DNA of 64,000 nt. It comes from Escherichia coli. GTDB lineage: Bacteria; Pseudomonadota; Gammaproteobacteria; Enterobacterales; Enterobacteriaceae. This document shows, piece after piece, positions 1,479 through 23,866 of this stretch. Below the pieces are notes generated by a model, which saw only the letters and a program-made list of their open reading frames with translations, did no database searches and had not been told where the DNA came from. Location of the stretch: assembly GCF_030013595.1 (NCBI RefSeq), contig NZ_CP122770.1. One strand, written 5' to 3'. The first letter of the stretch is position 1. Each line of letters opens with the position of its first letter. A program made the translations under genes and the position numbers.

Positions 1479-1559
1479 AACCAGTCTCCGTTGCTCATAA
1501 ACAAATAGAAAAAACAAACATGCTTCATACATGCAATGTATATTCAATTATAATGAAAA

Positions 1560-1720: not shown

Positions 1721-1891
1721 TCAGGTTAGGGGAAAAGGAATGAAATGGTGAAACTGAGAGGAAAGGAAAGCGGTGACGAATCATGTCACCATAAACAGAA
1801 AGATGTCTAATGGGGACTCTTTAGGTACGTGAAGAATCCCCATAACGCATTTAAAAGACACACATCAGATACCCTTAAGGTATCCGATAGT

Positions 1892-2200
1892 TTATTGACC
1901 TATTGCACCATCACGTTCAAGCTTCTCTCTTATAGCCTCAATAATATATGAGCTAAAATCCAGAGATGTTTTACTGGTCGCTTTAAGTTCCGCATGAGCT
2001 TCAAAATACGACAGCGGTATGGCCTTAAGATTCTTAGCCTTCGTCCTGGCAGCCACGGGACGACCTGAAACTTCCTCTGCACCTTCATTTGGCTGAGACG
2101 GGGCTGTTGCTGTTACGGCAGAAGAAGAAGTTTGTAATCTGGCAGAATCCACCAGGTTTTTCAGTTTTTCAGCCTGTGCACTAAATTTCGCTTTGCTCAT
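1892..2200 (-). CDS. ParG-like small ribbon-helix-helix centromere-binding protein (partner of the ParA-type ATPase)
   Basis: 102-aa ORF immediately downstream of the ParA-like gene; C-terminal KAIPLSYFEAHAELKA..IIEAIREKL resembles an RHH fold; layout matches type Ib parFG/parAB operons. Confidence 0.5.
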   Translation of the reverse strand: MSKAKFSAQAEKLKNLVDSARLQTSSSAVTATAPSQPNEGAEEVSGRPVAARTKAKNLKAIPLSYFEAHAELKATSKTSLDFSSYIIEAIREKLERDGAIGQ

Positions 2201-2286
2201 GAGATAACCCAGGATGTTTGTTAGATACTTAAAAGATATCCATTAAAAGCCCAAAGGATACTATATGGATACCCAATAGACACACC

Positions 2287-2931
2287 TTACTGTTTGTTAT
2301 TTTCAATCAGATGATTGATTTCTTCGATCAGGGCAATAACTTCCTTACCTCCTGCCGAATAGCGCCCATGAACAGACTCAGTGATTCCCATCCCAGTCTC
2401 AATGACATCCTCAAATTCTGCACGAGCAGAAATGCGGCTCTTCATCAGCTTCAGATGTTTGAACGATGGCAGGATTGCATCAAGCTTAGGGAATTTCTTC
2501 TTGTTAGGATTAACTTTACAGAGATACAGGTGAGCAGTTATATCGGTCCCCATGATAGAGCTGATTTCGTCCAGTACTCCATCAAAATGCATCAAACCAA
2601 TACGTTCAGTCAGGGAGTCTTTTGAAGGGACAATAACGCAGTCTGCAAAGGCAATCGCAGTACGGGTAAGATCTGAGTCAAATCCCCCACAGTCAATAAG
2701 TAACGTCTTATCGCTGTTCTTGTAGGGAGTCATAATTTCGATTAACTCATCCACTGTTTTGGGTACTTTCACGGAAATTTCTTTTCCTTCAGGTCTCAGC
2801 CCCAGAATGATAGAAAGCCCGGTATGAGTATCCAGATCAACTGTATCAGACTTCATTTCACCAACAATGTTTACGGATGAAGTTGTCTTACCCACACCAC
2901 CTTTGGGATGCGTATTAGCAATAACAGGCAT
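2287..2931 (-). CDS. parA: ParA/ParF-family partition ATPase (small type Ib Walker-type ATPase)
   Basis: Deviant Walker A box KGGVGKTT near the N-terminus (MPVIANTHPKGGVGKTT), about 214 aa, GGAG RBS 9 nt upstream of the ATG at 2931. Confidence 0.85.
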   Translation of the reverse strand: MPVIANTHPKGGVGKTTSSVNIVGEMKSDTVDLDTHTGLSIILGLRPEGKEISVKVPKTVDELIEIMTPYKNSDKTLLIDCGGFDSDLTRTAIAFADCVIVPSKDSLTERIGLMHFDGVLDEISSIMGTDITAHLYLCKVNPNKKKFPKLDAILPSFKHLKLMKSRISARAEFEDVIETGMGITESVHGRYSAGGKEVIALIEEINHLIENNKQ

Positions 2932-2983
2932 AGTGTATCTCCAGAATCCACATGTAATACCCATAAAGCCCCCATAAGACACC

Positions 2984-3100
2984 TTTCGGATATCCAAGAG
3001 GTACTCAATAGATGTTTTTTTACTCTATACCGGTCCTGCATGTCAACAGAATATGAAATACCGATAATATATCCATGAGATATCCGAAAGGGATTTAAAA
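2984..3100. promoter_or_regulatory. GGATAYC-type repeats upstream of the ParA-like operon (candidate type Ib centromere/operator)
   Basis: CGGATATCCAAG (2990), ATATATCCATGAGATATCCGAAAG (3068-3090); related copies at 2232-2275 (AAGATATCC, GGATACTATATGGATACC) and 1879 (GGTATCCGATAG). Confidence 0.35.
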
Positions 3101-6048: not shown

Positions 6049-7620
6049 TTACTGAGAGGTCAGATCAACTTTCCAGGGCAACAGATCGCGTACCCGGTTT
6101 GCCGGCCAATCCTGGATATGCTCAATGACGTAACGCAGCCATTTTTCTGGTTCCACATTGTTCAGACGGCATGTGCCGATCAGCGAGTACAACACCGCCG
6201 CATGTTCGCCACCGCTGTCGGAACCCGCGAAGAGCCAGTTTTTCCGGCCTACGGCCACTCCCCGTAAGGCGTTCTCTGCGATGTTGTTGTCGATTTCCAC
6301 CCAGCCATTACTGCAGTACACGTTCAGGGCCTCCCACTGTTTCAGCAGGTATGCGAACGCTTTTGCCGTATCCGAGTGACGCGACAGTGTTTTCATCTGT
6401 TCCTGTATCCAGTCATACAGTGACTGCATCAGTGGAGCCGCTCTGGCTTTTCTTGCTGCCAGACGCTGTTCTGCTGAACATCCCCGGACTTCTGCCTCGA
6501 TGACATACAGTTCACCGATACGCTGCAGGGCTTCCGTGGTGATGTCGGTTGGCACTCTTGCATGCACATCGTGGATTTTTCTCCGGGCATGGGCCATACA
6601 CGCGGCTTCCGTTATTCTGCCGGATTCGTATAACGCCCGGTAACCACCGTAAGCATCTGCCTGAAGCACACCGCTGTAACCGGCCAGGTGATTCTGTGGA
6701 TGGATACCTTTCCGGTCCGGGCTGTACGCGAACCAGACCGCCGGGGGCATCTGTGAACCGGCGTTACGGTCATCACGGACATAGACCCACAGCCGGGCAG
6801 TTCTTGTTTTACCACTGCCCGGCTCCTGGACCGGAACGGGGATATCATCCGCATGGACTTTACCGGGCATCAGCACATACTGGCGCAGCACGTCATACAG
6901 CGGCTCCAGCAGTTCAGCAACGGCACCGGTCCAGCGCCCCAGCGTGGCGCGGCTCAGTTCCACGCCCTGACGAAGGTATATTTCTGACTGGCGGTATAAC
7001 GGCAGATGGTCTGCATACTTCCCGGTGACGATATGAGCCAGAAGCCCCGCTCCGGCATAACTGCGTGCAATGGGTTTTGAAGGTACTGGTGCCTGCACGA
7101 TATGGTCGCACCGGCAACAGGCCAGTTTCGGACGTTGTGTTTCGATAACCTTAAAAGCGCTGCTGATAAGCTCCAGTTGCTCTGACACATCACACCCCAG
7201 AGGACTGAGGTCACCACCACAGGCCGGGCAGCATTCCTCTTCCGGCCGGATGACCCGGGTTTCACGGGGAAGTGAGGCCGGTAACGGCTTACGGGCTGAA
7301 GACTGGCGCAGGGCGGATGGCAGTACCGGGTCATATTGCTCATCCAGCGTTTCCGCCATTTCTTCCTGAAGTGCGCTGATTCGCTCCTGGGCTTCCTGTA
7401 TCTGCCGTTCGGTTTTAGCGCGAAGTTTTTCTGAGCTTTTACCGAACTGCATGCGCTGCAGTTTCGCAACCAGCGCCTTCAGCCGGTTGATTTCGGAAGC
7501 ATAAGCCGCCACCCGCTGTGAGAGCAGGCGGTTGTATTTCGCCATCTGGCGGATGGTGTCCTGTTGCGTCTGCAACAGTGCCCGCAGGCGGGCATTCTCA
7601 TGAGCAAGTGAGGTGTCCAT
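6049..7620 (-). CDS. tnpC: IS66-family transposase TnpC
   Basis: 523-aa protein with the zinc-finger-like CCPACGG..CCRCDH segment and conserved central and C-terminal regions typical of IS66 TnpC. Confidence 0.9.
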
Positions 7621-7639
7621 ATCCTCACTTTACAACGGG

Positions 7640-7987
7640 TTATATGCGGATGCCAGCGCGTTCCGTTCGTTTCGGGTGCTTCCAGTCGATGCCTTCGAGA
7701 AGCATGGACAACTGAGCCGGAGTAAGGTGAACCTTTCCATCGCGGGTGACCGGCCAGACGAAGCGGCCCCGCTCCAGGCGTTTGGTGAAGAGGCACAGTC
7801 CGTCACTGTCAGCCCACAGCACTTTTATCTGGTCACCCCGGCGTCCGCGGAAGATGAACAGATGCCCGGAGAACGGGTCATCCTTCAGGACGTTCTGAAC
7901 TTTTGAGGCCAGGCCGTTAAAGCCATTTCGCATATCGGTGATACCGGCAACCAGCCAGATACGCGAACCGGCAGGGAGAGATATCAT
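7640..7987 (-). CDS. tnpB: IS66-family accessory protein TnpB
   Basis: 115-aa ORF (MISLPAGSRIWLVAGITDMRNGFNGLA...) in the conserved middle position of IS66 elements. Confidence 0.85.
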   Translation of the reverse strand: MISLPAGSRIWLVAGITDMRNGFNGLASKVQNVLKDDPFSGHLFIFRGRRGDQIKVLWADSDGLCLFTKRLERGRFVWPVTRDGKVHLTPAQLSMLLEGIDWKHPKRTERAGIRI

Positions 7988-8637
7988 CAGTGGCTGCTCC
8001 CTTTCATTTCGCGGATAAGTGTCTGTAATAACGCCGGTGTCAGTTCACCTTTCAGCCTGAGAGTTCCGGCCGGCAGAACCAGCTCGCAGCACAGACTGTC
8101 TGGCAGTGTATTTATCTGTTCAGGTATCTGCACTGGTGCCGGGATTTTATTATCCGGCTCCGGAGTTAACGTCACGGGAAGTAGCGATGTTTCATGTTCG
8201 CCGGGCGGTTGCAGGCCACCGTTACGCCAGAGATGCCGCCAGTTAAAGAGCAGGTTATCGTTAATTCCATTCTCTCGAGCTATTTGTGCGACACAAGCAC
8301 CGGGTAAAAGAGTTTGCTGAACCAGTCTCCATTTAAACTCCGGTGAAAATCGGTTCCGGCGGGGTTTCTCTGCTTTCACAGGCTGAGTCACGGTCGGGGC
8401 TGAAGGGTATCGCCCCGGGAAAAGAGCCCGGGCCAGTTGCCCGCAGGAATATTCACCGGAAAGAGGCCAGTCAGTGAATACCTGGTGAAATCGCCTCACC
8501 AGAGAAAAAATGGCGGTTTTGCTGACACCGGTCTGCGCAGAAATGCGCGGGTACGACAGTGACTCGTCAAATCTCAGCTGTAGCACACGCAGGATCAATT
8601 CCGGATTGTCTGCCAGTACCGCTTTTCGTGCATTCAT
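7987..8637 (-). CDS. tnpA: IS66-family accessory protein TnpA (orf1)
   Basis: 216-aa ORF first in the IS66 operon; its stop overlaps the tnpB start; HTH-like N-terminus. Confidence 0.7.
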   Translation of the reverse strand: MNARKAVLADNPELILRVLQLRFDESLSYPRISAQTGVSKTAIFSLVRRFHQVFTDWPLSGEYSCGQLARALFPGRYPSAPTVTQPVKAEKPRRNRFSPEFKWRLVQQTLLPGACVAQIARENGINDNLLFNWRHLWRNGGLQPPGEHETSLLPVTLTPEPDNKIPAPVQIPEQINTLPDSLCCELVLPAGTLRLKGELTPALLQTLIREMKGSSH

Positions 8638-8926
8638 CTTAAATGTCCCTTTACTGCGAAAATGGACATTAGTATCGGAAACAGGAAAGGGAGGCGAAAG
8701 ACGGTTTAAATGAGACGGTTACGGGCATAATTGCTCCGCCACATCTTTTTGCTGTCCATCAGGGCAATGGCCCGGGCTTTTTTCTGCTCAAAGGTCACAG
8801 GAGCACCTCCGTTCCATGATGTAAACGTGACACAGCTTATTGTTATTGATTATTATTATCATGCTGTGGTTGTGTTGTCATGCATCAGTACACTGACAAA
8901 AGTGCAAAAGAAAGGAAAACAGGCAG

Positions 8927-9262
8927 ATGAACAGAAAATATTATTTTAATAATATGTGGTGGGGATGGGTGACGGGGGGATATATGCTGTATATGTCATG
9001 GGATTATGATTTTAAATACAGATTACTGTTCTGGTGTATTTCTCTCTGCGGAATGGTTTTGTATCCGGTTGCAAAATGGTATATTGAAGATACAGCTCTG
9101 AAATTTACCCGGCCTGATTTCTGGAACAGCGGTTTTTTTGCTGATACACCTGGGAAAATGGGATTGCTTGCTGTTTATACGGGTACTGTTTTCATATTAT
9201 CTCTTCCGTTAAGTATGATATATATTCTTTCTGTTATTATAAAAAGGCTGTCTGTAAGATAG
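8927..9262 (+). CDS. iia: Colicin Ia-type immunity protein (inner-membrane protein)
   Basis: 111-aa hydrophobic protein (MNRKYYFNNMWWGWVTGGYMLYMSWDY...) convergent with and immediately 3' of the colicin gene; the 111-aa length fits Ia rather than Ib immunity (from memory). Confidence 0.85.
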   Translation: MNRKYYFNNMWWGWVTGGYMLYMSWDYDFKYRLLFWCISLCGMVLYPVAKWYIEDTALKFTRPDFWNSGFFADTPGKMGLLAVYTGTVFILSLPLSMIYILSVIIKRLSVR

Positions 9263-9283: not shown

Positions 9284-11164
9284 TTAAATACCCCAGAACT
9301 TATTCGCTTTTTCCACAAGCGATTCATCAATCAGCGCACCGGTGACAGCCATCAGTAAACCATACCCGATAATGCCTAAAGCGCTTCCGGTAAGAATACT
9401 GAAGACCAGTGCAACAAGAGCCGTTGCGGCATTGCCTGCTATAATGGCTTCTGTTTTAACAAAAAGAGGACGCCAGTTCTCTGTCCGGACAGCCTTACCA
9501 AACTCAGTGATCCAGTCAGCAAGACTTGTAAATTTTCCTGCATATCCCAGTCCCCGACTGAATCTGTTCAGATTAGACGATATATCAGACAGCTTCACAG
9601 ACTCAAGGGCTGCGGCAATCGCTGCACGATCTTTTGCATTAATTTTTTTGTTAATGTCAGCCCGGTACTTTTCATACGTTTTTAATGCCTCTTCAACATT
9701 ACGTATTTTCTTCCCTTTAGCCTGCCCGGCCATCTCTCTGGCTAACTGCTCAGCTTTTGCACCATATTTTTCTGAAACTGATTTCAGGAACTCTGTTGTG
9801 AAATTAATTGCGTCTTTCGTTGCCTTCAGTTCATCCTGTTTTCTTTTCTCTTCCGCTATCTTCTGATTGATGCCGGCAAGCTGGTTACGGATATTCTCTT
9901 TTTCCTTCAACAGGGCATTAAGAGCGTCATTTGCATGCTTTTGCTCATTTGTTCTGGCACTGAGGTTATTTCTCGCCGAATTTACCGCAGATTCAGCAGA
10001 GGTGATTTTATTTCTGGCATCAAGCAATCGTTGCCGTAACTTATCCCATTCAGCAACTTCAGCATTATAAATTTTCTTGTCACCTTCCACATCCTCTGTC
10101 ACCACCGGATTCCGGTCATTCAGAATATTGCGTTTATAATCCAGACCGGAATGGGTCAGAAGATAATTCAGGTTTGCACGGTTATCGATGACTGCGCTGG
10201 TTGTGATTTTTATCGTACCGGCAAATCTCGGATCACCGCTCACAACAATAGAATGATTTGTTGATGAACGCCCCGGGAATTTTTCAGGGGAAACTATCGT
10301 TTTGCCGTCAGGCGTGTTTTTCTGTTGCGTCAGCTGTTGTTCAGCTCTGGTTAATGCATTACGGGCCGTGTTAAGCGATTCCGTCACTGAACTGAGTTTA
10401 TTCCGGGCCTCTGAAATGGCCCTGTCATTCCGTGTCTGCTGCCCGAGCAGACGGGCCTGTTGTGCATCAAGAACGGCAAGGGCTGCCCCGCCATTTTTTT
10501 CCAGCTCTGACAACCGCGTGTCCAGAATACCTTTTCTGCGCTCGTATTCAGCAAGCATATCAGCGGCCTTCTTGTCTGCGTTCTGCGCATCCTTCTGCCG
10601 TTTTTCAGCCTGTTCGATTAACGACCTGGCCTCCCGGGGAGATATACGAAGAGAATCAGCATCAGCAAACAGCATCCGGCTCTCTGTATGCAGCCGGAGG
10701 GCATCATATCCGGCGATTTCAGTACGGAATCCGTATTCTCTCAGCTCTGCCTGCAGGAGTCTGAACTCCTGTCGTGTAATATCAGCGGCATCTGCGTTTC
10801 CGGCACGGAGTGTTTTCAGTGTGTTTTCATCTTTTTCCCTTGCAGCAATCGCCGCAGAGAGGCGTTTTCCGGCTTCAGTACGCTTATTCTCATTCTCTTT
10901 CTGCTGCGCGCTGAGCGTGTTTTTGTACGCTGTGATTTCCTTGTCCCTTTTTTCGATATCACTTCGGGTTGGGGAATCATCAACCCACTCGTTTCCGCCC
11001 CAGATGGTTTTGTTCCCGAAGGAACTCCATGCAGGCGGGGTACCATGAAAGACATCGACACGTGGAGGGTTTACATAAATATCAACGGCCATAATTTCAT
11101 GGCCATCTGAATCATACCCCAGCGATTCTGCACCGGGATTTGTAATACGTACAGGGTCAGACAT
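9284..11164 (-). CDS. cia: Colicin Ia (or Ib) pore-forming bacteriocin, 626 aa
   Basis: Full-length match by recollection to colicin Ia/Ib: N-terminus MSDPVRITNPGAESLGYDSDGHEIMAVDIYVNPPRVDVFHG, long coiled-coil central region, C-terminal channel domain with hydrophobic hairpin ..AGNAATALVALVFSILTGSALGIIGYGLLMAVTGALIDESLVEKANKFWGI. Confidence 0.95.
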   Translation of the reverse strand: MSDPVRITNPGAESLGYDSDGHEIMAVDIYVNPPRVDVFHGTPPAWSSFGNKTIWGGNEWVDDSPTRSDIEKRDKEITAYKNTLSAQQKENENKRTEAGKRLSAAIAAREKDENTLKTLRAGNADAADITRQEFRLLQAELREYGFRTEIAGYDALRLHTESRMLFADADSLRISPREARSLIEQAEKRQKDAQNADKKAADMLAEYERRKGILDTRLSELEKNGGAALAVLDAQQARLLGQQTRNDRAISEARNKLSSVTESLNTARNALTRAEQQLTQQKNTPDGKTIVSPEKFPGRSSTNHSIVVSGDPRFAGTIKITTSAVIDNRANLNYLLTHSGLDYKRNILNDRNPVVTEDVEGDKKIYNAEVAEWDKLRQRLLDARNKITSAESAVNSARNNLSARTNEQKHANDALNALLKEKENIRNQLAGINQKIAEEKRKQDELKATKDAINFTTEFLKSVSEKYGAKAEQLAREMAGQAKGKKIRNVEEALKTYEKYRADINKKINAKDRAAIAAALESVKLSDISSNLNRFSRGLGYAGKFTSLADWITEFGKAVRTENWRPLFVKTEAIIAGNAATALVALVFSILTGSALGIIGYGLLMAVTGALIDESLVEKANKFWGI

Positions 11165-11442: not shown

Positions 11443-12789
11443 TCAGTACCTGAGATGCATAAAAACACCGTACATATGTTTCTTAAAAGGGGGATGATCG
11501 TTATCCAGCCATTTCGGTGGATCGGTATGCAGAACACCAATCTGCTTCATGCCGGTATGCTGCCTGGATTTTCTCGCGCAGTAATCACTGTCTTCATATC
11601 CCATCGTTTCGATGACCACTCTGGCCGTCTTTCCGTCAGGAGCCCTTGCTGTGACAATGAAATCCGGCAGTACATATTTCTTTTCACCATTAACATAAAC
11701 TTCTGTATCAAACAGGGGCCTTTCCAGACTTAATTCCGGCGTACCTGGCTTTCTTTTAAGCCAGCTGGCCACATTCAGAAGAGCAGTGAGCGTGTTTCGT
11801 TCCAGTTTGCTGTCCACAGGCACCGGACATGTCAGTTGATAAAGAGCATGAGCATACCCTTCACTGCAGATGATTCTGCCATCGGCACTCCGGCAAAAAG
11901 CAAGAATAACCCAGTAAGGGGGACGTATTCCGCCCTGCGCTTCACCATTAATACTGATCCCCCGCACAGGTCTGATGACCTGAATATTACCGTTCGCCCA
12001 GTGAATTTCCACAGCATCACGACAGATGTGCTGCGCCATAAAAATCTGAAAGAACATATGCTTTCTTCTGGCAGGCCAGTGTCGTTCTGAATTCTCCAGC
12101 GTTTCCATTAACCGCTCCTGAGACCTTTCAGACATTCCTGGCCGGAAATGGATAATTTCAGATAAGGCTCTTCCCCGAATATACTCCTGCTGTAGTGTAA
12201 CCTGCCGTATGGCATCAAGACACTCACGATAATTAGTCCGGATACGGGGATTAGCCAGGGAATCCAGTTTATTCAGCCCTGCATCTTCAATAAGCGACAG
12301 GAGTAAACGGCCAAGGCGCGGACGTTTCTTGCGAACGGAGGAGCGCTCACCATTATGGTAAGCAGAGCGGGCCTGCAGTCTGATAACAGAATTACTGTCA
12401 TCAGGTGGTAAAAAGTTTCTGTAATTTATACGGGTGCTAACGGGATGCCGGCTTGCTCCGAAGGATGTTTCCTCTTCATTTCCGGATAACTGACGATACA
12501 TGGGGCATTCAGGTGCATGCTCATGATTAAAACTGGACAGATAAAGAGTACCCGTATTGTTTTTAAGAGCAGCAAAATTCATGGCCGGCGAATCTCCCGG
12601 AATACAGTCACACTGTAACCATGCATCATACTCACGCATTTCCCGGAGAAGAGCATTGGCCAGGTTATGTTGTGCCATGGTTGCTGGCCTTTTCAGTCCA
12701 CAGACCGTCTTTACTGCAGTCTCTTCCTCACTGCTAAGCTCCCGAATCACTTTGCCCCGGGGATTCTTCTTTACAAGTATCATTGGCAT
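11443..12789 (-). CDS. Hypothetical 448-aa protein with a Cys/His cluster and a possible nuclease-like C-terminal region
   Basis: Long ORF with GGAG RBS before ATG at 12789 (MPMILVKK..); motifs CDCIPGD and HEHAPECP; C-terminal YVLPDFIVTARAPDGKTARVVIETMGYE loosely resembles a restriction-endonuclease-like core; no family assigned. Confidence 0.6.
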   Translation of the reverse strand: MPMILVKKNPRGKVIRELSSEEETAVKTVCGLKRPATMAQHNLANALLREMREYDAWLQCDCIPGDSPAMNFAALKNNTGTLYLSSFNHEHAPECPMYRQLSGNEEETSFGASRHPVSTRINYRNFLPPDDSNSVIRLQARSAYHNGERSSVRKKRPRLGRLLLSLIEDAGLNKLDSLANPRIRTNYRECLDAIRQVTLQQEYIRGRALSEIIHFRPGMSERSQERLMETLENSERHWPARRKHMFFQIFMAQHICRDAVEIHWANGNIQVIRPVRGISINGEAQGGIRPPYWVILAFCRSADGRIICSEGYAHALYQLTCPVPVDSKLERNTLTALLNVASWLKRKPGTPELSLERPLFDTEVYVNGEKKYVLPDFIVTARAPDGKTARVVIETMGYEDSDYCARKSRQHTGMKQIGVLHTDPPKWLDNDHPPFKKHMYGVFMHLRY

Positions 12790-13142
12790 AATGAAAGCAC
12801 TCCTTATGTACATGCTTAAACAGTAAGTAAAATATACAAAGAACCCCCCATGAAACAAAGGCAGAGATGAACTGTGCGCCCCGATATCTTCTTCTGATAT
12901 CCTTTCAAATGAATTGTTTTTATTTATATCATGACAACATTAAAGTGAGAGAATATATCAACCATGTTTCTGTCAGGGTTCAGTAGAATATCAATTCGAC
13001 TGTCACGCCATAACTGTAACTACCTCGAGTATAAATATTCAGAGAATGGACTTATTAGCCATGAAAAATCACCTGATGGGAAATTTACTAATTTATGGAT
13101 TGTGATATTATTAAAGAGTAAAACCAGCCAGCCGAGGTATTT

Positions 13143-13736
13143 ATGGGAAAAAATCAGGAAGAAAGGAAAACTCCCGTCATTGTGGTGAAAAAACGTCGTA
13201 CTTTTTCGCCACCGTCCTTATCCGAAAAAACAGATATTATCGCACCTGTATTTACTGAACAGACGGCAGAATCAGCCCCCGCCGGAATAAATTCATCTGC
13301 CGTCGAAACACATATCCCCGAAGCGCCAGCCAGGAAGAAGAAAAAGAAAAGACACCGTTTTCCACGTCCCTCCCACTGGACCCGTGAGTATACTCACGAG
13401 TGCGTGGAAAAAATAAAGGCCCTGTTTCCTCATCTTCGTGCTGAAGGTGGTGGATTTATTCCCCTGAAAATTGGCATAAGCAATGATATTTCGGCATTTC
13501 TGGCAGAAAGCCCGGATACAGAACTGTCCATGGACGAATGGTTCTGTGCAGTGTCCTGCATCACCTCCCGCCGCGTATATCTGCAGCGGACCTCTGTCGC
13601 CGGCGTCCCTCGTTATGGGCTGGATGGTCATCCCGATGGGCAGGTCTCAGAAACTGAAGCACAGAGTGCTGTTCAAAGACTGGCGATAATAGAACAACGG
13701 TGGCTCAGGATGAAGGAACGGCAGACTGAGCAATAA
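13143..13736 (+). CDS. FinO/ProQ-domain RNA-binding protein (FopA-like)
   Basis: Basic N-terminal half (KKKKKRHRFPRP) followed by a FinO-like domain pattern (..EKIKALFP..GGFIPLKIGISNDI..RRVYLQRTSVAGVPRYGLDGHPDGQVSE..); a hairpin GAGTCTGcttaCAGACTC follows the stop. Confidence 0.65.
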   Translation: MGKNQEERKTPVIVVKKRRTFSPPSLSEKTDIIAPVFTEQTAESAPAGINSSAVETHIPEAPARKKKKKRHRFPRPSHWTREYTHECVEKIKALFPHLRAEGGGFIPLKIGISNDISAFLAESPDTELSMDEWFCAVSCITSRRVYLQRTSVAGVPRYGLDGHPDGQVSETEAQSAVQRLAIIEQRWLRMKERQTEQ

Positions 13737-14017
13737 ACATTTCAGATAACATCATGACATTGTGTATCAGAGTCTGCTTACAGACTCATGGATGCCACCA
13801 AAGGCTCATCAGATGTAAGGCAGAAGCGACGTAACTGCCTTTTGAAAGGAAAAAAGCGACCGCAAGGATGCAATGGATATCTGCCGCATACTGAAATAAA
13901 GTAACAAAAAAATCACCACAATCACGGGGGCTTCCTTCCTGTACTCAGGCCATACCCCCCGCACGTATAAATTTCTCAATCAACAATACAATAAAACTGT
14001 GAATAATATCATCATGA

Positions 14018-14884
14018 TTAACGCATAATTACCCGTGATTCTTTCCTGGTAACGTAAGTACAGTTATCCGGAACCTCCTCCATAATAAAAGACATGGCTC
14101 CAATTTTTACATTACTGCCTATTTTTACGTTAAGCCCGATAATACACGTATGGGCACCGATATCGACATTATCACCAATAACGATATAATTCTCTCTGCT
14201 GTCAGATTCCTTTTCGCCAATGGTCGTATTCTGCCGTATAATCACATTCTCACCGATTTTTACATTTCCGTGAATGACGACGCCTGAATGGTGGGGCAGC
14301 ACGAGGCCTTTACCAATCTGCGCCCCCAGACCAATATCACATCCATACTTTGCCATAAGCGCATTTTTTATCTTGATCGCACATTTTCGTTGTTTTTTAT
14401 TCCCCGATATATACATTTCATTAGCCAGGCGCCACCACAGAAGAAAACCTCTCTGCCTCTGCATACCGTTCCTGATAAGCCGGTGAAAAACAAACTTATC
14501 CCGCATGATAACTTCTGCTTTCCAGTATTCCAGAAGATGACGTTTTTTTCCTGAAAATAAAAACGTGCCAATATGGAAATAAGAAATCGGATTTTTTATC
14601 AACATACGCAAATTTTTAGAAAACAATGAATACAGATGTATTTTATATACACAGATAAAACCGCGCAACAGACATAAATATGACAGTAGCAATGAAAAAG
14701 CAGAGAGTGTGGGTGATACAGAAAAGTAACTGTCAGACATTAAATCTGATGCATCGATAAACAGACGCCCCAGCAGATGCACCTGTAATGCAACGATTTT
14801 GCCGTGTCTGCTACAGAAGTAATACACAAATTTCCGGGGATTCTGCCTTAGCATTTTGATATATTCAGATACGGTAAATCTCAC
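14018..14884 (-). CDS. CysE/WcaB-like hexapeptide-repeat O-acetyltransferase (serine acetyltransferase family)
   Basis: C-terminal left-handed beta-helix repeats GCDIGLGAQIGKGLVLPHHSGVVIHGNVKIGENVIIRQNTTIG...VIGDNVDIGAHTCIIGLNVKIGSNVKIG align with the CysE catalytic domain; the gene is strongly AT-rich; N-terminal start uncertain. Confidence 0.6.
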   Translation of the reverse strand: MRFTVSEYIKMLRQNPRKFVYYFCSRHGKIVALQVHLLGRLFIDASDLMSDSYFSVSPTLSAFSLLLSYLCLLRGFICVYKIHLYSLFSKNLRMLIKNPISYFHIGTFLFSGKKRHLLEYWKAEVIMRDKFVFHRLIRNGMQRQRGFLLWWRLANEMYISGNKKQRKCAIKIKNALMAKYGCDIGLGAQIGKGLVLPHHSGVVIHGNVKIGENVIIRQNTTIGEKESDSRENYIVIGDNVDIGAHTCIIGLNVKIGSNVKIGAMSFIMEEVPDNCTYVTRKESRVIMR

Positions 14885-14904
14885 TTTAGATGGACTAAGG
14901 ACTT

Positions 14905-15246
14905 ATGATATTTACAAAATTTCAATCTCTGACCCACAAGATAGATACAATGATTATTCATGATATTAAACGGGAGATGCCATTGAAATACGGGTTATAC
15001 AGGGTGGCCAAATGGTTTGCCTGGCTCGCCCACACAGGAATTTTTTGTACCTTTATTATATATATAGGGTTTTCCATCATCACTCAGCACGCCGGCCAGG
15101 AACTACCGGAGACGTTTAAACATGGATTCGCCTTGACTTTCTGTTCATTTGCAACAGCAGCTCTGGTCAGCCAGTGGATCGGAGGCGGATTGCATAGCAA
15201 ACTGGAAGAAAGAATTCGGATGAAGTGGCAGAACCACGCTCACTGA
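14905..15246 (+). CDS. Hypothetical small membrane protein, divergent from the acetyltransferase gene
   Basis: 113-aa ORF with two predicted hydrophobic helices; its stop sits inside a hairpin CACTGAC-N11-GTCAGTG (15241-15265). Confidence 0.35.
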   Translation: MIFTKFQSLTHKIDTMIIHDIKREMPLKYGLYRVAKWFAWLAHTGIFCTFIIYIGFSIITQHAGQELPETFKHGFALTFCSFATAALVSQWIGGGLHSKLEERIRMKWQNHAH

Positions 15247-15441
15247 CAGGATCACCCGGTCAGTGCACAGAGGGCGGGTGGCGAAGACTCCGGTGACTGC
15301 TCCCCGCCCGCATTGGGCGAGGATTCTCGGCGGTTCTTCGCTGACTGCACCATACCTCCCAGACAAGACTGTTCGGAATATATCGCTCTTACTGGGGGAG
15401 CAGTAAACTAAAAATGAAAAGTATTATTCCTGACTGGAATT

Positions 15442-15723
15442 TTATGGCCACTTCTGTGCGGTATGCAACACGCGCAGGACATACACTTTTCCCCACTGGC
15501 TGTCGACCTCATAAACCAGAACAAAATGGGGGTGAATAACCAGTTCCCGGGTTCCTTCCACACGACCGTTGCGACCTTTATACGGCTGCCCGGCCAGGCT
15601 GCTGGCTGAATAACCAATCCGTTCGTCCAGTTCAATGGCGGCCATCAGGTTCTGCTCCGCAATGTACTCACGAATGCGCTTCCTGTCCTGGCTGGCCAGC
15701 ATGGTCCAGAATATCTCCATCAT
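15442..15723 (-). CDS. ParE/RelE-family type II toxin
   Basis: 93-aa protein ending ..GTRELVIHPHFVLVYEVDSQWGKVYVLRVLHTAQ, typical of ParE/RelE toxins; 4-bp overlap with the upstream antitoxin gene. Confidence 0.8.
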   Translation of the reverse strand: MMEIFWTMLASQDRKRIREYIAEQNLMAAIELDERIGYSASSLAGQPYKGRNGRVEGTRELVIHPHFVLVYEVDSQWGKVYVLRVLHTAQKWP

Positions 15724-15989
15724 TTATCGGAAACCTTCCTGCTCATTTCATCCCGCCATGCAGCGGCAGAAGATTCGACCATGTCATGGGGAAGCACATC
15801 GCCGCGCTCGAGTTGCTGACGTCCTGCCGCAACCTGGTCACGGAACCAGGTATTATGCTGCCGTTCAACGGTCTGGCGCATAAAATCCCGAATTAACTGA
15901 GAGCCATTACGGTCCATGCTTTTTGCAGCGGCCATAAAAGCATCCTTCAGTTCAGCGTCGATTCTTAAACTCATATTAACCTGTGCCAT
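15720..15989 (-). CDS. RHH-type antitoxin (ParD/RelB-like) of the ParE/RelE pair
   Basis: 89-aa protein with N-terminal MSLRIDAELKDAF RHH-like segment, directly upstream of and overlapping the toxin gene. Confidence 0.75.
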   Translation of the reverse strand: MAQVNMSLRIDAELKDAFMAAAKSMDRNGSQLIRDFMRQTVERQHNTWFRDQVAAGRQQLERGDVLPHDMVESSAAAWRDEMSRKVSDK

Positions 15990-16599
15990 TTATCACCTCG
16001 TCATTACTACGTATATACACAGTATATAACGATTCAGATATCGTCACCAGGATATGCCGCGCCAGCGGCATGGAAGGCGGCACGCTGTGGTTACATGTGA
16101 TACCGGAGTAAAACCGCCGAAGCCCGGCGTCAGCCGGTACTGATTGATAGATTTCACCTTACCCATCCCCAGCCCTGCTAAGCCATACCCGCTTTCAGCC
16201 ATGAGACAGTTTCTGTGCGCGGTCGGAGTGGTCCCGACGAGGGTTTACCCGAAGTCGGGGCGTATCTCCGCGTTAGCGGGCCGTGAGGGCCGCTTACGAG
16301 CGTGTACTGAGGACTTCCAGCCAGAAGACTGGCAGCGATGACAATGTAGTTACAACATTCATAATTAAAAGCGATGTTGTTCCCGCCCTTCGGGCGGGGG
16401 CGGCCTCGCTTTTCAGTTATGAGGGGTGGGCACGGTGCTGCGTTTGTGTGGTGTTTTTTATTCCTGATGTTTTCGCGGTGGTTTCAGAACGGTGAGGTTC
16501 GGGGCCCGCGCGTTAGCGTGGGAGGTGCTTTTAGATTCTGAGCGGCGCGGCCTTGGCCGCTGCAAGCGAAGGCCTCTTTGTGTTTGTTCACGGTGGTTT

Positions 16600-16896
16600 C
16601 AGAGATAAAGACTTTCCCTGCGGCGAAGCAACGCAGGGGATTAAATAATGGGGTTAAGACTATATTGCAGGTTTGCTGTTTCAGGTTTGCAGCTTCTTAA
16701 AGTTTTTTGTTTGCGGATTTATGTGGATAACTGAAACAACGTGGCCACGTTCTGATGACTGATGCGTGGTTTTATGGGCAGATATGCCCCTCTGAGGGGA
16801 TTTAAGGTGATTACTGCGGATTTTGGGCTGAGCGGAACCAGCGCCGAAAGCCCCGGAGGGGCTGGTGATGATTCAGTGCTGAGGGAATGGTGCTGT
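16600..16896 (-). other. IncI1-type replication origin region (CIS/oriV) downstream of repZ, with a DnaA box
   Basis: DnaA box TGTGGATAA at 16721-16729 (complement of TTATCCACA); GC-rich hairpins (AGCCCCTCCGGGGCT, CCCCTCAGAGGGG) directly after the repZ stop; position matches ori location in IncI1/IncB replicons. Confidence 0.5.
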
Positions 16897-17928
16897 CTAG
16901 TGCGGCGGTGGGGCAGCCAGCGTCAGTTCAAGCTGACGCAACTCCCTGATGGCCAGTCGCTTCAGATGGTCATCGGAACAAAAATAGGCTTCATCCGGCG
17001 GCAGACGCTTCCTGAGATATTCTGCCATCTCATGAATCTGCTGGTCGGCAGGCAGTTTCTTCAGGCGTCTGGCGCGCTTACTGGCTGCTGCTTTCGCACG
17101 ACGGTGTTTCAGCGCATCCTGACTGCGCTGCAGATACCAGCGTTTTCTGGCCGCATGTACGGAGATATCTTCATCCTCACGCAGAACACCTTCCCGAATG
17201 AGCTGCTGGCGGATTTCACTTTCACGCAGTCGTTTCTGCTGCTGTTCGTGAAGTTTTACCATGTCGACGCCCAGCATCTGCCAGCCTGCCGGTGTTATCC
17301 AGACGTAACGAGGCAGACGCTGGCGGGTTTCACGGTCCCACAGGGTTTCATCTGAAACACCCAGCACACCAAAACGTACCTGTTCGGCCAGCAAACGGGA
17401 AAGGCGGGAGACCGTCACTTCCAGTTCCGGAATAACCTTCCCCTTGCTGTCTTTCGGGCTGATTTCTCTGGCCAGACGGGAAACACTCATGCCTACGGTA
17501 TGTGTGCCCGCATCACTGAAGCTGACCAGAACCGGCCAGACGGCATCGAGGAGGCGTTGTTTTTCCGGACGGAAAGCATATTTGCGACCGGCATACGTTC
17601 GTTTCTGCACGTAAAAAGGATGCAGAGACATGTGCATGCGCAGGCTCTGCTCGCCGGTCACCGGGTCCTTTTTCACCAGACGGTTGTAGGCGTGCCCGAG
17701 CTGCCCGCTCAGCGCCTTATAGCGCTCAGGACGATACCAGGACGGATTTTCGCATTTGGGTTTGGTGGAGTGCTCACCACGACGACGCTTCGTGCGCTTC
17801 CTTTCCGGTTCAACCAGGAAAGTGGTCGCCCTTCCCGCTTCATAGTCTTCCCAGAAACGGATCTGCTCTTCGGGTGCTAACTGACTCCAGTGTACTGCGT
17901 TATATGGAGTATTCTTCAGACCTGCCAC
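16897..17928 (-). CDS. repZ: RepZ replication initiator (IncI1/IncFII RepA1 family)
   Basis: Characteristic RepZ sequence (..GLKNTPYNAVHWSQLAPEEQIRFWEDYEAGRATTFLVEP...); no in-frame ATG near the 5' end, so the start is placed at the GTG at 17928 next to the repY stop; exact start uncertain. Confidence 0.9.
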   Translation of the reverse strand: MAGLKNTPYNAVHWSQLAPEEQIRFWEDYEAGRATTFLVEPERKRTKRRRGEHSTKPKCENPSWYRPERYKALSGQLGHAYNRLVKKDPVTGEQSLRMHMSLHPFYVQKRTYAGRKYAFRPEKQRLLDAVWPVLVSFSDAGTHTVGMSVSRLAREISPKDSKGKVIPELEVTVSRLSRLLAEQVRFGVLGVSDETLWDRETRQRLPRYVWITPAGWQMLGVDMVKLHEQQQKRLRESEIRQQLIREGVLREDEDISVHAARKRWYLQRSQDALKHRRAKAAASKRARRLKKLPADQQIHEMAEYLRKRLPPDEAYFCSDDHLKRLAIRELRQLELTLAAPPPH

Positions 17929-18005
17929 AAGCTGTCGCTTATGGCGGAGCGATTGTGCCGTGTATTTATACACTGCACAGGGTTGAATCTCTGGTACGGT
18001 TTCAT
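17916..18005 (-). CDS. repY: RepY leader peptide (29 aa), translationally coupled to repZ
   Basis: ATG at 18005, MKPYQRFNPVQCINTRHNRSAISDSLWQV, stop TGA at 17916-17918 overlapping the repZ 5' region, as expected for the IncI1 repY-repZ arrangement. Confidence 0.7.
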   Translation of the reverse strand: MKPYQRFNPVQCINTRHNRSAISDSLWQV

Positions 18006-18019
18006 TATACTTTACCCGT

Positions 18020-18091
18020 ATTCTGTGAGGCCCCCACTATCTTTCGTCGTTCCGCCAAGTTCGTAAGAAAGATAGTGGGGGTTTTCCTTTT
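18020..18091 (+). ncRNA. inc: Inc antisense RNA (replication-control countertranscript) with terminator hairpin
   Basis: Perfect 15-bp stem CCCCCACTATCTTTC / GAAAGATAGTGGGGG (18031-18081) with loop containing CCGCCAA (complement of the rep-mRNA rUUGGCG loop), followed by TTTTCCTTTT, on the strand opposite the rep mRNA leader. Confidence 0.55.
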
Positions 18092-18378
18092 ATGGCTTCC
18101 GGAACATCTTCAGTCTTCTGACTTACTGCCCGTACATGCCATCTCTCCTGAATGCCTTATGGCGCATTCTGCCGTCCGGCTTTCGCCGGTTTGCTCCACA
18201 GAGTGCCACTCTCTGCACAGCTAATAACAGCCGAAATATACCCGCTTTACGTTAATTTGAAAAGCATTACAACGATCTCTTCTCTTCCAGTGCCTCCTCA
18301 CTGATACCTCTAATAAGTTAATCTTGACCTACGTCAAAAAAATAAAATCTATTTTTAAAAGCAGATTTTTCTGCTTTA

Positions 18379-18527
18379 GATCTTTCTTTTGGATTAAAAG
18401 ATCGACTTTTGTCCTACTCACGATCATTTATCTTACAACCGATCTACCTAACAGAATAATATTCTGTTTTAATGCAATTAAACGATCTAAATAACCTTTA
18501 AAAAATCATTTTGTAGATCATTCGATC
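18379..18527. promoter_or_regulatory. Cluster of seven GATC (Dam) sites upstream of the rep promoter
   Basis: GATC at about 18379, 18400, 18422, 18441, 18484, 18517 and 18524 within 150 bp; near-palindrome AACAGAATAATATTCTGTT at 18451-18469. Confidence 0.3.
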
Positions 18528-21281: not shown

Positions 21282-21452
21282 GGATGTGTAATCCCCGGCA
21301 TACCCCGTTTCCAGTCTTCGCAGCCTGTACCGCCCTTCCTGCCGTTTCCGACATTCTTTCTGTCACTACTCGCTTGTGCCGTTTTTTCGCAACCGGTACG
21401 TGCAGTTATGACGGTACAGCTGCTTCTTTTCCCGTTCCGGAAGGAGTCTTTG

Positions 21453-21827
21453 ATGCCACAGCAACATCCCGGACGACTGCAAATACTGGTCGTCGACGCA
21501 CACTGCAAACGCAGGCTGTTTTCAACGAAAACACCGACAGACCCCGATGAACTTGCCCGACGTTTCTGCACGCCGGATAACTGTCTCGTGGTGGTACTAC
21601 GCGACAACCGCTTTCTGTTCCGACTGGAGCGTGCTCCCGGCAGCCACTGCCGCTGGCACAAGGGCAGCAGCTCCCGCCATCAGTATCTACAGGACTGGCT
21701 ATTTAAAAGTAAAAACAACTGCAAATCATTTGAAACTAACACCAATTTACTGGATAAAAATGGTAAGCCTGTGGAAATAATGGTGTGTGATGATCAGGAA
21801 CTGCATTTTTTTGTTCCAAAGAATTAA
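21453..21827 (+). CDS. TraD-position hypothetical protein (about 124 aa)
   Basis: ORF with internal ATG (MPQQHPGRLQILVVD) in the fourth position of the traABCD block; cysteine-rich C-terminal half. Confidence 0.35.
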   Translation: MPQQHPGRLQILVVDAHCKRRLFSTKTPTDPDELARRFCTPDNCLVVVLRDNRFLFRLERAPGSHCRWHKGSSSRHQYLQDWLFKSKNNCKSFETNTNLLDKNGKPVEIMVCDDQELHFFVPKN

Positions 21828-21876
21828 ACAGTTAATCCTCCTTAGTCTGTTATTTTAGTCGCCTGCCTCAGCCAAC

Positions 21877-22470
21877 ATGAAAAATAATAACGCGCCATTA
21901 TATCTCTGGTTGCTTTGGTGTACGCTTTGTCTGTACATCACTACCCCATGGCAATACTTACGTTATCCATACACTGACAACTTATCATTGCCTTATATGT
22001 TATATTTCTGTGTGGTGGTTGTGATTTGCATTTTCCCACTACTTTTCAGATGTGTACTTCTTATTGTAAGGTCTGCATCTAAATACGACTTCACATTCTT
22101 TGTGAAGAAGAAAAAGGGAAGCAAGAAATCAACTATACATCTTAGCCCCTATGCTGACACACGTTGCCCGAAGTCAATGAGGAAACACTGGGATGTATTG
22201 CTTTCTCTGATATCAAAAGCAATTAATAATGATGAAATCATTGTCATGCATTCACATCTCTTTACTCCAGCAAGAATAAATAAACTTATAAAGAGACTGG
22301 AATCTTATGATTTGAGTTTTTCAGTTATTACATACCCACGGAAAACAAGTCTGTACGAAAAATTATCAATTCCTTTTATATATCTCTTGTTTCAGTGGTC
22401 TTTCCCGCATTTGCATTCGGACGGAATGACAGTCGTCATTCGTCCTCTCCAGACCCACCACACCAATTAA
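21877..22470 (+). CDS. Hypothetical membrane protein encoded upstream of the pil operon (PilI/J/K region)
   Basis: 197-aa AT-rich ORF with two N-terminal hydrophobic helices, immediately upstream of the thin-pilus operon. Confidence 0.45.
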   Translation: MKNNNAPLYLWLLWCTLCLYITTPWQYLRYPYTDNLSLPYMLYFCVVVVICIFPLLFRCVLLIVRSASKYDFTFFVKKKKGSKKSTIHLSPYADTRCPKSMRKHWDVLLSLISKAINNDEIIVMHSHLFTPARINKLIKRLESYDLSFSVITYPRKTSLYEKLSIPFIYLLFQWSFPHLHSDGMTVVIRPLQTHHTN

Positions 22471-22610
22471 AAAATACATTTAGATATAAAAAGAATGCTC
22501 ATAAACAGGATTTTTATTTTCACAAAAAATCCCAAAACACTGGCTTAATTGGCTATCCACAACCTCACCTTTAAAATAACATGCAACATTAAAATTCAAA
22601 AGATAGAATA

Positions 22611-22802
22611 ATGAAAATACTAATCAACAATATTAAAGACCCAAGCAGACTTCTGAATGCGACTAAAACGGGACATTCAGGAGTAATTCTCTCAATACCG
22701 GTATACATTACCAATCCAATTGCACATAAAATAATGAACCCTTACTTAAAGTCCGCATTAACTAACAAACACGTATATACGAACACGGAGTCTCCGTTAT
22801 GA
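22611..22802 (+). CDS. Hypothetical small protein whose stop overlaps the pilL start
   Basis: 63-aa ORF ending at the pilL ATG (22799). Confidence 0.3.
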   Translation: MKILINNIKDPSRLLNATKTGHSGVILSIPVYITNPIAHKIMNPYLKSALTNKHVYTNTESPL

Positions 22803-23866
22803 AAAAAAACTATCTGACACTTATACTGCCGTCATTATTGTCCGGCTGTGCCGGAATTTCCGGCGGCAATAACGTGGCACCATCAGATACGCCTGCTCTG
22901 GTTTTTGTTGACGGACAAATCAGTGAGAGTGCTGGCGTCCTGGCACTTACGCAACAACGACTTTCTCCACCTAAAATAACTCCGCCCCCGAGAGTCAGCG
23001 TGCCAGAGACAGTAAAAACAGCACAGCCAGTAAGCGAATCCCGACCGTTACCTTCACCAACAATAAGTCAGAATTTCTCCCGGTTAATCATTACAGGCAA
23101 GCCTGGTAGCACCTCTGTAACACTATCGCCGACGGCCCGTAACCGGACCGTCAGTCAGTGGATAAAAACATTACTACCGGAAGGATGGAAATTCAGACAA
23201 GAGAATGCAGCCACGCCCAAACTGAATACCAAACTGGTTTCATGGTCTGCCAATGATCAGTGGACCCGTTCTCTGAACCGGTTGCTGGAAGAACAACACC
23301 TCTGGGGCCATCTGGACTGGGATAATAAAACGTTGACCGTCACAACATCGGCTGCTGCACCGGCACAGGACACGGCAACCACTATCTCGCCAGCAGCCAT
23401 GGTAACCACATCCACTTCCCCGGAGTCTTCAACGACAGCAAATAGCCAGAACAAACCACGAAACCCATTCAGGGGAAACAGCGTATCTCCGTCTACGCCC
23501 GCAGCAATCCCGACTCCGACCGGCTCTACAGTCAAGTCTATCCCACTCATGACCGGGACACCTGTCAAACCGGTATCTCAGGGTAAAGAGTGGCGTGCGC
23601 CGGCAGGCACTACATTAAGGGAAAACATTATTAAGTGGGCAGAAGAAACAAAATGCGAAAGCATGGCATCAACGCACTGGATGGTCATATGGCCACTTTC
23701 TGTAACCGATTACCGTCTTGATGCGCCTTTGATGTTCCGGGGATCATTTGAATCAGCCATGGAGCAGGTATTTGAGTTATATCGGACTGCGCAAAAACCT
23801 TTATACGCACAGGCTTCTCGCATGCAGTGCATCATTACAGTTTCTGATACAAGGGATGGTCGCTAA
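22799..23866 (+). CDS. pilL: PilL, thin-pilus lipoprotein
   Basis: 355-aa protein with lipoprotein signal (LLSGCAG); first large gene of a conserved pilL-pilV block. Confidence 0.85.
   Translation: MKKNYLTLILPSLLSGCAGISGGNNVAPSDTPALVFVDGQISESAGVLALTQQRLSPPKITPPPRVSVPETVKTAQPVSESRPLPSPTISQNFSRLIITGKPGSTSVTLSPTARNRTVSQWIKTLLPEGWKFRQENAATPKLNTKLVSWSANDQWTRSLNRLLEEQHLWGHLDWDNKTLTVTTSAAAPAQDTATTISPAAMVTTSTSPESSTTANSQNKPRNPFRGNSVSPSTPAAIPTPTGSTVKSIPLMTGTPVKPVSQGKEWRAPAGTTLRENIIKWAEETKCESMASTHWMVIWPLSVTDYRLDAPLMFRGSFESAMEQVFELYRTAQKPLYAQASRMQCIITVSDTRDGR

Follow-up and report, generated by a model that had tools for sequence, protein, structure and literature searches.

A PHROG 2154 acetyltransferase, probably not CysE, and a small membrane protein occupy a variable slot of an I-complex plasmid from Escherichia coli

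Does a plasmid-borne gene labelled 'serine acetyltransferase' encode an enzyme of the cysteine pathway, and if it does not, what might such a gene do for the element that carries it? The question is raised by a stretch of 64,000 nucleotides from Escherichia coli (NCBI RefSeq assembly GCF_030013595.1, contig NZ_CP122770.1), referred to here as the window, in which a preliminary description made from the letters alone had drawn attention to an AT-rich islet at 13740-15250 carrying a CysE-like O-acetyltransferase gene and, divergently transcribed from it, a gene for a small membrane protein. We find that the islet is two-gene cargo in a variable slot of an I-complex plasmid and, apart from that, accessory DNA of an ordinary kind, annotated already in about 84 plasmid records. 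What the preliminary description missed is that the acetyltransferase belongs to a family, PHROG 2154, that is mainly cargo of phages and phage-plasmids, and we hold with high confidence that its product is an acetyltransferase, but not CysE. Our best explanation places the slot between convergent backbone genes (one for a FinO/ProQ-family protein, the other yacB) and has both cargo genes acquired horizontally and independently of each other; taken as a whole, together with the roles proposed below for the two products, we judge it to stand slightly better than an even chance. The features within the islet are as follows:

14018-14605, minus strand: acetyltransferase of PHROG 2154, 195 amino acids (aa), left-handed beta-helix, labelled 'serine acetyltransferase'; a coding sequence called by the Prokaryotic Genome Annotation Pipeline (PGAP)
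14606-14904: divergent intergenic region of 299 bp and 37.5% GC, whose left part is taken up by the in-frame, non-coding extension of a 288-aa open reading frame (ORF)
14905-15246, plus strand: 113-aa membrane protein with two hydrophobic helices; homologues align from Met1

The length of the enzyme has to be settled first, as the 288-aa ORF runs on the minus strand over the same gene (14018-14884). We considered whether this ORF encodes a longer protein whose N-terminus is hydrophobic and rejected the idea, since homologues are of about 190 aa and the allele found on an IncF plasmid has stops. Specifically, homologues (13-57% lower identity) are 180-200 aa long and span only about 65% of the 288-aa ORF, the upstream frame is interrupted by three stops in the IncF allele, and the 195-aa form matches the PHROG 2154 profile end to end (E 2.1e-63; residues 20-193 fall on positions 5-179 of the 185 in the profile). 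The real acetyltransferase is of 195 aa, and the 288-aa ORF arises only because the frame upstream happens to be open. The minus-strand extension itself, at 14606-14884, is open and in frame and is not conserved; metagenome gene callers give versions of 269-278 aa. With the gene model corrected in this way, the 113-aa membrane protein is indeed adjacent and divergent, as first described, at a distance of 299 bp. The ratio of nonsynonymous to synonymous substitution rates (dN/dS) of the acetyltransferase gene is 0.059 against the allele of an IncK2/Z plasmid and 0.104 against the IncF allele, from which it follows that the gene has been kept by selection.

To which class does the 195-aa protein belong? 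The hexapeptide domain first reported for it is confirmed by Pfam, where Hexapep scores 38.6 bits against a cut-off of 27 and is the only domain found, and the protein is thus a member of the hexapeptide-repeat (left-handed beta-helix) acyltransferase superfamily. Below that level the NCBIfam models all fall short of their cut-offs: the best match, EpsC NF041874, reaches 86.8 bits of 150, cysE TIGR01172 reaches 75.6 of 210.65, PRK11132 reaches 59.3 of 397, and the WcaB models TIGR04016 and PRK10191 reach 56.1 and 56.3 of about 195. A domain search had been suggested as a means of sorting CysE, WcaB and xenobiotic types. Since all models miss their cut-offs, the first two could not be separated in this way; no Vat- or CatB-type xenobiotic acetyltransferase model is among the best 25 of 36 NCBIfam matches and no Vat or CatB chain is among the Protein Data Bank (PDB) sequence matches at E 1e-3 or below. 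The N-terminal helical domain SATase_N (Pfam PF06426) gave no match to the protein at E up to 1.

An AlphaFold2 model, built on an alignment of 71 family members, has a predicted local distance difference test (pLDDT) score of 95.1. It shows short strands about every six residues from residue 89 onward, preceded by a five-helix N-domain that is shorter than that of CysE and superposes partly on the CysE helical N-domain. In a Foldseek search all top matches of the model were CysE structures, with template modelling (TM) scores of about 0.65-0.76, 22-30% identity and E values down to 5e-11. Residues were then placed through HMMER alignments to CysE chains, and their conservation was counted over the 71 family members; the roles of Asp143, His158, Asp157, Arg192 and His193 in CysE are those given in PMC9547175:

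CysE Asp143, which stabilises the general base: Asp90 here; Asp or Glu in 71/71 members
CysE His158, the general base: His105 here; His in 70/71 members
CysE Asp157, an active-site ligand contact: Pro104 here; column varies across the family
CysE Arg192, an active-site ligand contact: Asn139 here; column varies across the family
CysE His193, an active-site ligand contact: Tyr140 here; column varies across the family
CysE Asp92, substrate-binding: possible equivalent Asp36 here; Asp in 24/71 members

Acetyl transfer to a hydroxyl by the His/Asp dyad is a well supported assignment of the chemistry of this enzyme. The residues that hold L-serine have been lost, which argues that it is not an enzyme of the cysteine pathway, and the acceptor loop at residues 131-140 varies in both length and sequence across the 71 members; such a variable pocket points to acceptors that differ between alleles. 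In addition, the isoleucine at the C-terminus by which CysE is anchored in CysK (PMC9547175) is absent; the protein here ends in ...KESRVIMR, with a final arginine, and the C-termini of the family are unrelated. The term 'CysE-like' is thus apt for the fold and the catalytic dyad, and fails at the model cut-offs, at SATase_N, at the ligand-contact residues and at the C-terminal isoleucine.

It could still be argued that the protein truly is a serine O-acetyltransferase. On this view it would be a compact paralogue of CysE, insensitive both to CysK and to feedback, from which the plasmid or phage would gain a larger supply of O-acetylserine and cysteine, or more CysB-regulon signalling. In its favour, every one of the best fold matches is a CysE structure, the His/Asp dyad is kept, the top NCBIfam matches are described as serine O-acetyltransferases and the databases use that name. 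These points are outweighed, in our view, by equivalog scores far under their cut-offs with no SATase_N match, by the exchange of Asp157, Arg192 and His193 for Pro, Asn and Tyr in columns that vary over the family, by a serine-pocket loop of varying length, and by an equivalent of Asp92 that is an Asp in only 24 of 71 members. Serine is, on these aligned residues, very unlikely as the substrate, and we strongly disfavour the cysteine-supply reading. Compared with CysE proper (EC 2.3.1.30; structures 1T3D from E. coli and 6WYE and 7RA4 from Neisseria gonorrhoeae), the protein has in common the helical N-domain, the left-handed beta-helix and the dyad; CysE is of about 273 aa and belongs to the core genome, whereas the enzyme here, with its shortened N-domain, replaced ligand contacts and lack of an anchoring isoleucine, is found on mobile elements.

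PHROG 2154 is a phage protein family annotated as of unknown function, and relatives of 49-69% identity are single genes in mobile contexts. In P2-like E. coli prophages the relative lies between gpU and a tail-fibre assembly gene; on E. coli chromosomes it stands beside hok and a tail-fibre remnant near copA; and on a Salmonella plasmid it adjoins an integrase. The P1-like phage-plasmid JL22 carries a relative of 53% identity, sacF, between two tail-fibre gene sets near the cin invertase gene, and prophages of Gilliamella and Buttiauxella have relatives at the tail end, beside tail-fibre or tail genes. The enzyme studied here resembles sacF and PHROG 2154 in size and in its habit as an AT-rich single gene, and differs in that its carrier is a conjugative I-complex plasmid and that it has no tail-fibre genes nearby, the best match to a tail-fibre or assembly-gene remnant in the window having an E value of only 0.27. 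Further afield, homologues of about 32% identity sit mid-genome in the Streptococcus thermophilus phages 9871-9874 and the SW series (for example NC_031069, phage 9871, at about 17.2 kb).

A scan of one genome per species found 177 relatives of the acetyltransferase. When the two immediate neighbours of each of 71 loci were taken (n=142), they fell into 142 different Pfam families, so that the gene has no fixed partner; the commonest were TonB receptors, tail-fibre assembly proteins and major facilitator superfamily transporters (4 each), followed by NeuB, family 2 glycosyltransferases (GT2) and integrases (3 each). A few relatives of about 40% identity lie beside glycan enzymes, namely NeuB in Halopseudomonas, GT2 in a metagenome-assembled genome (MAG) of Lentisphaeraceae and GT4 in a MAG of Thermodesulfobacteriota. 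Moreover, the gene is much richer in AT than its flanks in all ten contexts checked (28-40% against 33-58% GC), and thus the dip that was noticed in the window is a trait of the gene family and not of this plasmid. The family is present in 447 plasmid records, with I-complex and IncF plasmids among the carriers, and consists of AT-rich single-gene units that move among temperate myophages, P1-like phage-plasmids, conjugative plasmids and chromosomal islets. Two loci stood out by their arrangement. At the end of a myophage tail module in a prophage of Gilliamella sp. wkB112 (locus 7001-9207), two tail-fibre assembly genes occur in alternation with two hexapeptide acetyltransferase genes that differ from each other, and on a Cronobacter malonaticus chromosome (locus 7001-8299) two hexapeptide genes lie tail to tail in an islet with no phage genes near.

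We propose that the protein, which is intact and under selection, is a cytoplasmic O-acetyltransferase dependent on acetyl-CoA, the use of that donor being expected from family membership. Acting on the cytoplasmic side, it would O-acetylate a sugar in an envelope glycan, or in the lipid- or nucleotide-linked precursor of one, and its acceptor would be common to E. coli, Shigella and Salmonella, for example lipopolysaccharide (LPS) core, enterobacterial common antigen or colanic acid. Such acetylation could change the surface receptor used by phages, and possibly by IncI thin-pilus adhesins, by the same logic as the prophage-encoded NeuO. The following evidence points this way: the dyad is kept while the serine pocket is lost and the acceptor loop is hypervariable; there is kinship with enzymes of exopolysaccharide (EPS) clusters, EpsC and WcaB being the nearest models, and glycan genes neighbour distant members; and genes of the family ride next to receptor-binding genes of temperate phages. 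We infer the acceptor class, the phenotype and the link between the IncI thin pilus and LPS from this evidence, and to a glycan acceptor with a changed receptor we give somewhat less than an even chance.

The WcaB- and EpsC-type enzymes of EPS clusters have the CysE-like catalytic core in common with the protein here, no NCBIfam model scores better than EpsC, and some records call close alleles 'colanic acid biosynthesis acetyltransferase'; they differ in that the scores here lie below the cut-offs and the gene is solitary on plasmids and phages, outside a colanic-acid or EPS cluster. NeuO, a beta-helix O-acetyltransferase of polysialic acid from prophage CUS-3, has an activity that raises phage resistance (PMC3046976; PMC13001214). 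We put it forward as a working analogue, for it is soluble, has a left-handed beta-helix, acetylates a surface glycan and travels as single-gene prophage cargo; phase-variable repeats, a point of difference, were not seen in the acetyltransferase here. No sequence relationship to NeuO was detected: it is missing both from the PDB sequence matches (E 1e-3 or below) and from the top 50 fold matches. It belongs to a different branch of the hexapeptide superfamily.

Several observations weigh against acetylation of an envelope glycan. The association with tail fibres is strongest in IMG/VR, where 69 of 80 loci have a tail-fibre assembly gene within 500 bp (68 of the 69 convergent), in a collection that is phage-biased and in loci that are highly redundant, being mostly P2-like prophages of E. 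coli; in the unbiased scan of one genome per species tail-fibre assembly proteins make up only 4/142 neighbours. The tail-fibre neighbourhood is, moreover, a general insertion hot spot for phage cargo and does not alone imply modification of a receptor. Close relatives are never within a polysaccharide gene cluster, and a soluble enzyme on a broad-host conjugative plasmid would need an acceptor in every host. In the literature that was searched for tests of what a 'serine acetyltransferase' of a phage or plasmid does, no substrate is assigned, and the authors of the JL22 paper state that it is unknown why sacF is present. The Streptococcus thermophilus phages with homologues are presumably virulent, and if so, lysogenic conversion cannot account in full for the wider family. 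A common envelope glycan O-acetylated by an enzyme of this kind is, to our knowledge, not known from E. coli strains of the K-12 type. Lastly, neither gene has a sigma-70-like promoter or a terminator beyond what chance would give, with 5 promoter-like sites where shuffling leads one to expect 4.5, and no terminator. A weak promoter candidate upstream of 14605 was seen by eye and was given no weight.

Two further targets for the acetyl group have to be considered. The first is a small molecule, such that acetylation would inactivate a toxic sugar analogue, an antibiotic, a bacteriocin or another xenobiotic, as LacA, Maa and Vat/CatB do. It would suit this that the gene stands alone and that close relatives have no glycan genes as partners; a detoxifier encoded by one gene could act in whatever host a conjugative plasmid entered, and there are weak sequence matches to structures of galactoside and maltose O-acetyltransferases. 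The matches to LacA and Maa are, however, much weaker than those to the CysE/EpsC/WcaB group, the Vat and CatB families are missing from the best NCBIfam matches as described above, the hypervariable acceptor loop of close relatives fits diverse glycans better than one conserved small molecule, and some distant relatives adjoin NeuB or glycosyltransferase genes; we thus regard this reading as unlikely. The second is a protein, nucleotide or other intracellular target, acetylated by what would be a factor of anti-phage defence or counter-defence. The cargo slot beside tail-fibre genes in P2-like and P1-like elements, and the AT-rich, mobile and single nature of the gene, are in keeping with such a factor, but neither islet protein is matched (E up to 1) by a model of PADLOC-DB 2.0, such a fold and dyad are typical of O-acetyltransferases that act on small hydroxyl acceptors, and no such function was reported in the literature searched, which makes a defence role quite improbable.

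The label 'serine acetyltransferase' on hundreds of plasmid and prophage records is probably wrong for this family, and cysteine metabolism or auxiliary metabolic genes deduced from that label would be misleading. If an envelope glycan is acetylated, the family would be a common factor, so far overlooked, in phage host range, in serology and possibly in IncI mating specificity in E. coli, Shigella and Salmonella, and one that travels on resistance and colicin plasmids.

What, then, of the second gene in the islet? PGAP starts it at 14950 (Met16, 98 aa), whereas the start at 14905 gives 113 aa. Homologues of 52% identity are of 113 aa and align from Met1, and over codons 1-29 (14905-14991) the ratio of nonsynonymous to synonymous differences (pN/pS) is 0.07 with a pS of 0.55, against a ratio of 0.7 in the rest of the gene at equal synonymous divergence. 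As the differences in the first 29 codons are mostly synonymous, those codons are translated. On this codon evidence we take the start at 14905 to be right and the 98-aa start of PGAP to be wrong, so that the public annotation halves the N-terminal peptide. This peptide, MIFxKFQSLTHKIDTM.I.DIKREMPLKY, is almost invariant in homologues that are 52% identical overall, and the motif SLTHKID...P-KY persists down to 13-27% identity. Helices are seen in the Kyte-Doolittle profile at about residues 34-60 and 75-96, and an AlphaFold2 model (pLDDT 86) is a helical hairpin; the protein is predicted to be a hairpin with both termini inside the cell (N-in/C-in).

The family of the 113-aa protein has 46 representatives among 1.84 billion proteins, is found on plasmids and integrative elements only, and carries no name. 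Searches of Pfam, NCBIfam and PHROG with it gave sub-threshold noise only, PADLOC gave nothing, and Foldseek against the PDB returned no match to the model at E 0.001 or below. Relatives lie at the distal end of transfer operons of MOBC/MPF_T plasmids of 20-36 kb, in the order coupling protein, MobC, thermonuclease and then the small gene; on a Proteus plasmid the order is VirB10, single-stranded DNA-binding protein, DUF1496 and then the small gene; and others are found on further plasmids and integrative elements. In none of the contexts examined does an acetyltransferase gene adjoin these relatives. The conserved N-terminal peptide is probably where the function of the protein resides, and from position only we would guess at a conjugation-accessory or exclusion-type role. 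Against such a role stands the lack of homology to known exclusion proteins in the Pfam, NCBIfam and fold searches. The paper on exclusion by pKPC_UVA01 deals with another protein, TrbK.

Do the two genes form one unit? The answer lies in the limits of the slot, which were obtained by blastn against the canonical IncI1 plasmid pNF1358 and by comparison with the IncK2/Z and IncF plasmids:

13772-15442: variable segment of cargo DNA (1,671 bp at 42.5% GC), lying between the FinO-family gene and yacB, whose 3' ends face it (blastn against pNF1358)
13772-14731: acetyltransferase module, 40.1% GC, mobile on its own (IncK2/Z and IncF comparisons)
14732-15442: small-membrane-protein module, 45.7% GC, not in the IncK2/Z or IncF acetyltransferase copies; its own relatives are on other plasmids
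14657-14731: 75-bp relic of the acetyltransferase upstream region, 93.5% identity (query 958-1032), in about 500 canonical IncI1 plasmids

Homology to pNF1358 extends up to 13771 and resumes from 15443, exactly at the 3' end of yacB. The segment that differs from canonical IncI1 is slightly wider than the AT-rich span of 13740-15250 first described. In pNF1358 the slot holds 2.7 kb with four other genes (three for hypothetical proteins and one for a 3'-5' exonuclease), and the relic, seen in an identity band of 513 records, is the sole piece of the segment in common. The IncK2/Z plasmid matches at 95% over 13000-14731, and what comes next in it is the very sequence found after the relic in IncI1; in the alignment the right junction, 14731/14732, is identical in the two. 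The IncF plasmid has the acetyltransferase gene alone (13931-14754 at 88%), flanked by transposases of the IS3 and IS256 families.

The mosaic accordingly has breakpoints at 13771/13772, 14731/14732 and 15442/15443. Because IncK2/Z goes on like IncI1 after 14731, the acetyltransferase module is apparently an old occupant of the slot, and the common junction indicates that the gene was lost from canonical IncI1, where a scrap of the region upstream of it was kept, whereas in the present lineage a different right-hand module, with the small membrane gene, was joined at 14731/14732. From the aligned sequences the relic appears to mark an old deletion or replacement in the slot, and the slot between the FinO-family gene and yacB, together with the relic, is a useful marker of the history of I-complex plasmids.

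The complete segment is present in 84 plasmid records and in 83/5,426 complete E. coli genomes, and 426 of the 435 places that match the segment query at all are on plasmids; in the window it matches only itself. That the islet is not universal, where its presence in all IncI1 backbones would have told against the preliminary description, is borne out by its presence in about 84 of the 696 plasmids that match the queried span 13700-15300 and by the different content of canonical IncI1. Two adjacent and divergent genes, both AT-rich and together in about 84 plasmids, might suggest one functional module, for instance an enzyme with a membrane partner or exporter. Yet the acetyltransferase at 80% identity or more is on about 304 plasmids and the small gene on about 86; the IncK2/Z and IncF copies are without the small gene, and the junction at 14731/14732 separates the two. 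Conversely, 67 other plasmids carry distant copies of the small gene alone, and in the five contexts examined these are beside transfer genes with no acetyltransferase near. Nor was a similar membrane gene found beside the enzyme in the phage and chromosomal contexts examined. Each gene occurs widely without the other, the two are not a unit, and a shared function of the two products is extremely unlikely.

Loss of the gene from canonical IncI1, with only 75 bp retained, and the lack of a convincing promoter could also be read as signs that the islet is decaying hitch-hiker DNA without a current function. The dN/dS of 0.06-0.10 between plasmid alleles, a frame intact at the full length of the family and the pN/pS of 0.07 at the N-terminus of the small protein speak against decay, and we consider it most improbable.

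If the two products do have the roles proposed above, a bolder form of the argument can be framed. PHROG 2154 would be a widespread, unrecognised class of receptor-masking enzymes in which each allele, with an acceptor loop that varies, acetylates a conserved envelope glycan such as LPS core and so blocks the adsorption of phages whose tail fibres are of the neighbouring type; on I-complex plasmids, altered recognition by LPS-binding thin-pilus adhesins or by phages would give a benefit akin to surface exclusion; and, independently, the 113-aa protein would represent a new conjugation-exclusion or transfer-accessory family acting through its SLTHKID peptide. Taken together, these proposals are doubtful, and we offer them as speculation.

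The surrounding plasmid is well defined. Over 12800-16200 the window is 100% identical to the Salmonella plasmid pSA20101045.1, which is typed as IncI-gamma/K1, MOBP and MPF_I, and the IncI1 backbone first named for the locus has to be corrected to that type. The order around the islet is colicin Ia and its immunity gene, yagA, the FinO/ProQ-family gene, the acetyltransferase, the small ORF, yacB/yacA and repZ, in which the immediate flanks are backbone:

13143-13736, plus strand: FinO/ProQ-family RNA-chaperone gene, left flank, outside the islet (Pfam ProQ, 7.3e-13); labelled 'ProQ/FINO family protein' in pSA20101045.1
15442-15989, minus strand: yacB/yacA toxin-antitoxin pair, right flank (annotation of the identical plasmid)

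The yacB flank is 98.4% identical to pNF1358 from 15443 onward. When 12500-18500 was scanned against Rfam (E up to 1), no RNA element came up within the islet; the scan gave only, about 2.5 kb away, the repZ pseudoknot RF01087 (194.5 bits) and the antisense CopA-like/Inc RNA at 17941-18089, which confirm an I-complex replicon.

The sharp fall in composition that first drew attention to the islet is real, with 40.9% GC over 13740-15250 against 48.4% in the whole window, 49.5% in the FinO/ProQ gene and 52.7% in yacBA. Windows of 1.5 kb have a mean GC of 48.5% (standard deviation 4.3%), 2.9% of them are equally low, and four other stretches are as rich in AT (1101-3012, 21301-23312, 59801-61312 and 60251-62462). 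The dip is genuine, and it is neither unique nor extreme.

Two small features were also noticed in and around the slot. A perfect 7-bp hairpin, GAGTCTG-CTTA-CAGACTC, spans the left junction (13771/13772) at 13770-13787; it was considered as a terminator and rejected, being without a T-run and having a fold z-score of -1.4. Downstream of the small gene, a GC-rich stretch of 55 bp at 15300-15354, present as a single copy in the window, is 87% identical to the 3' end of psiA in many I-complex plasmids.

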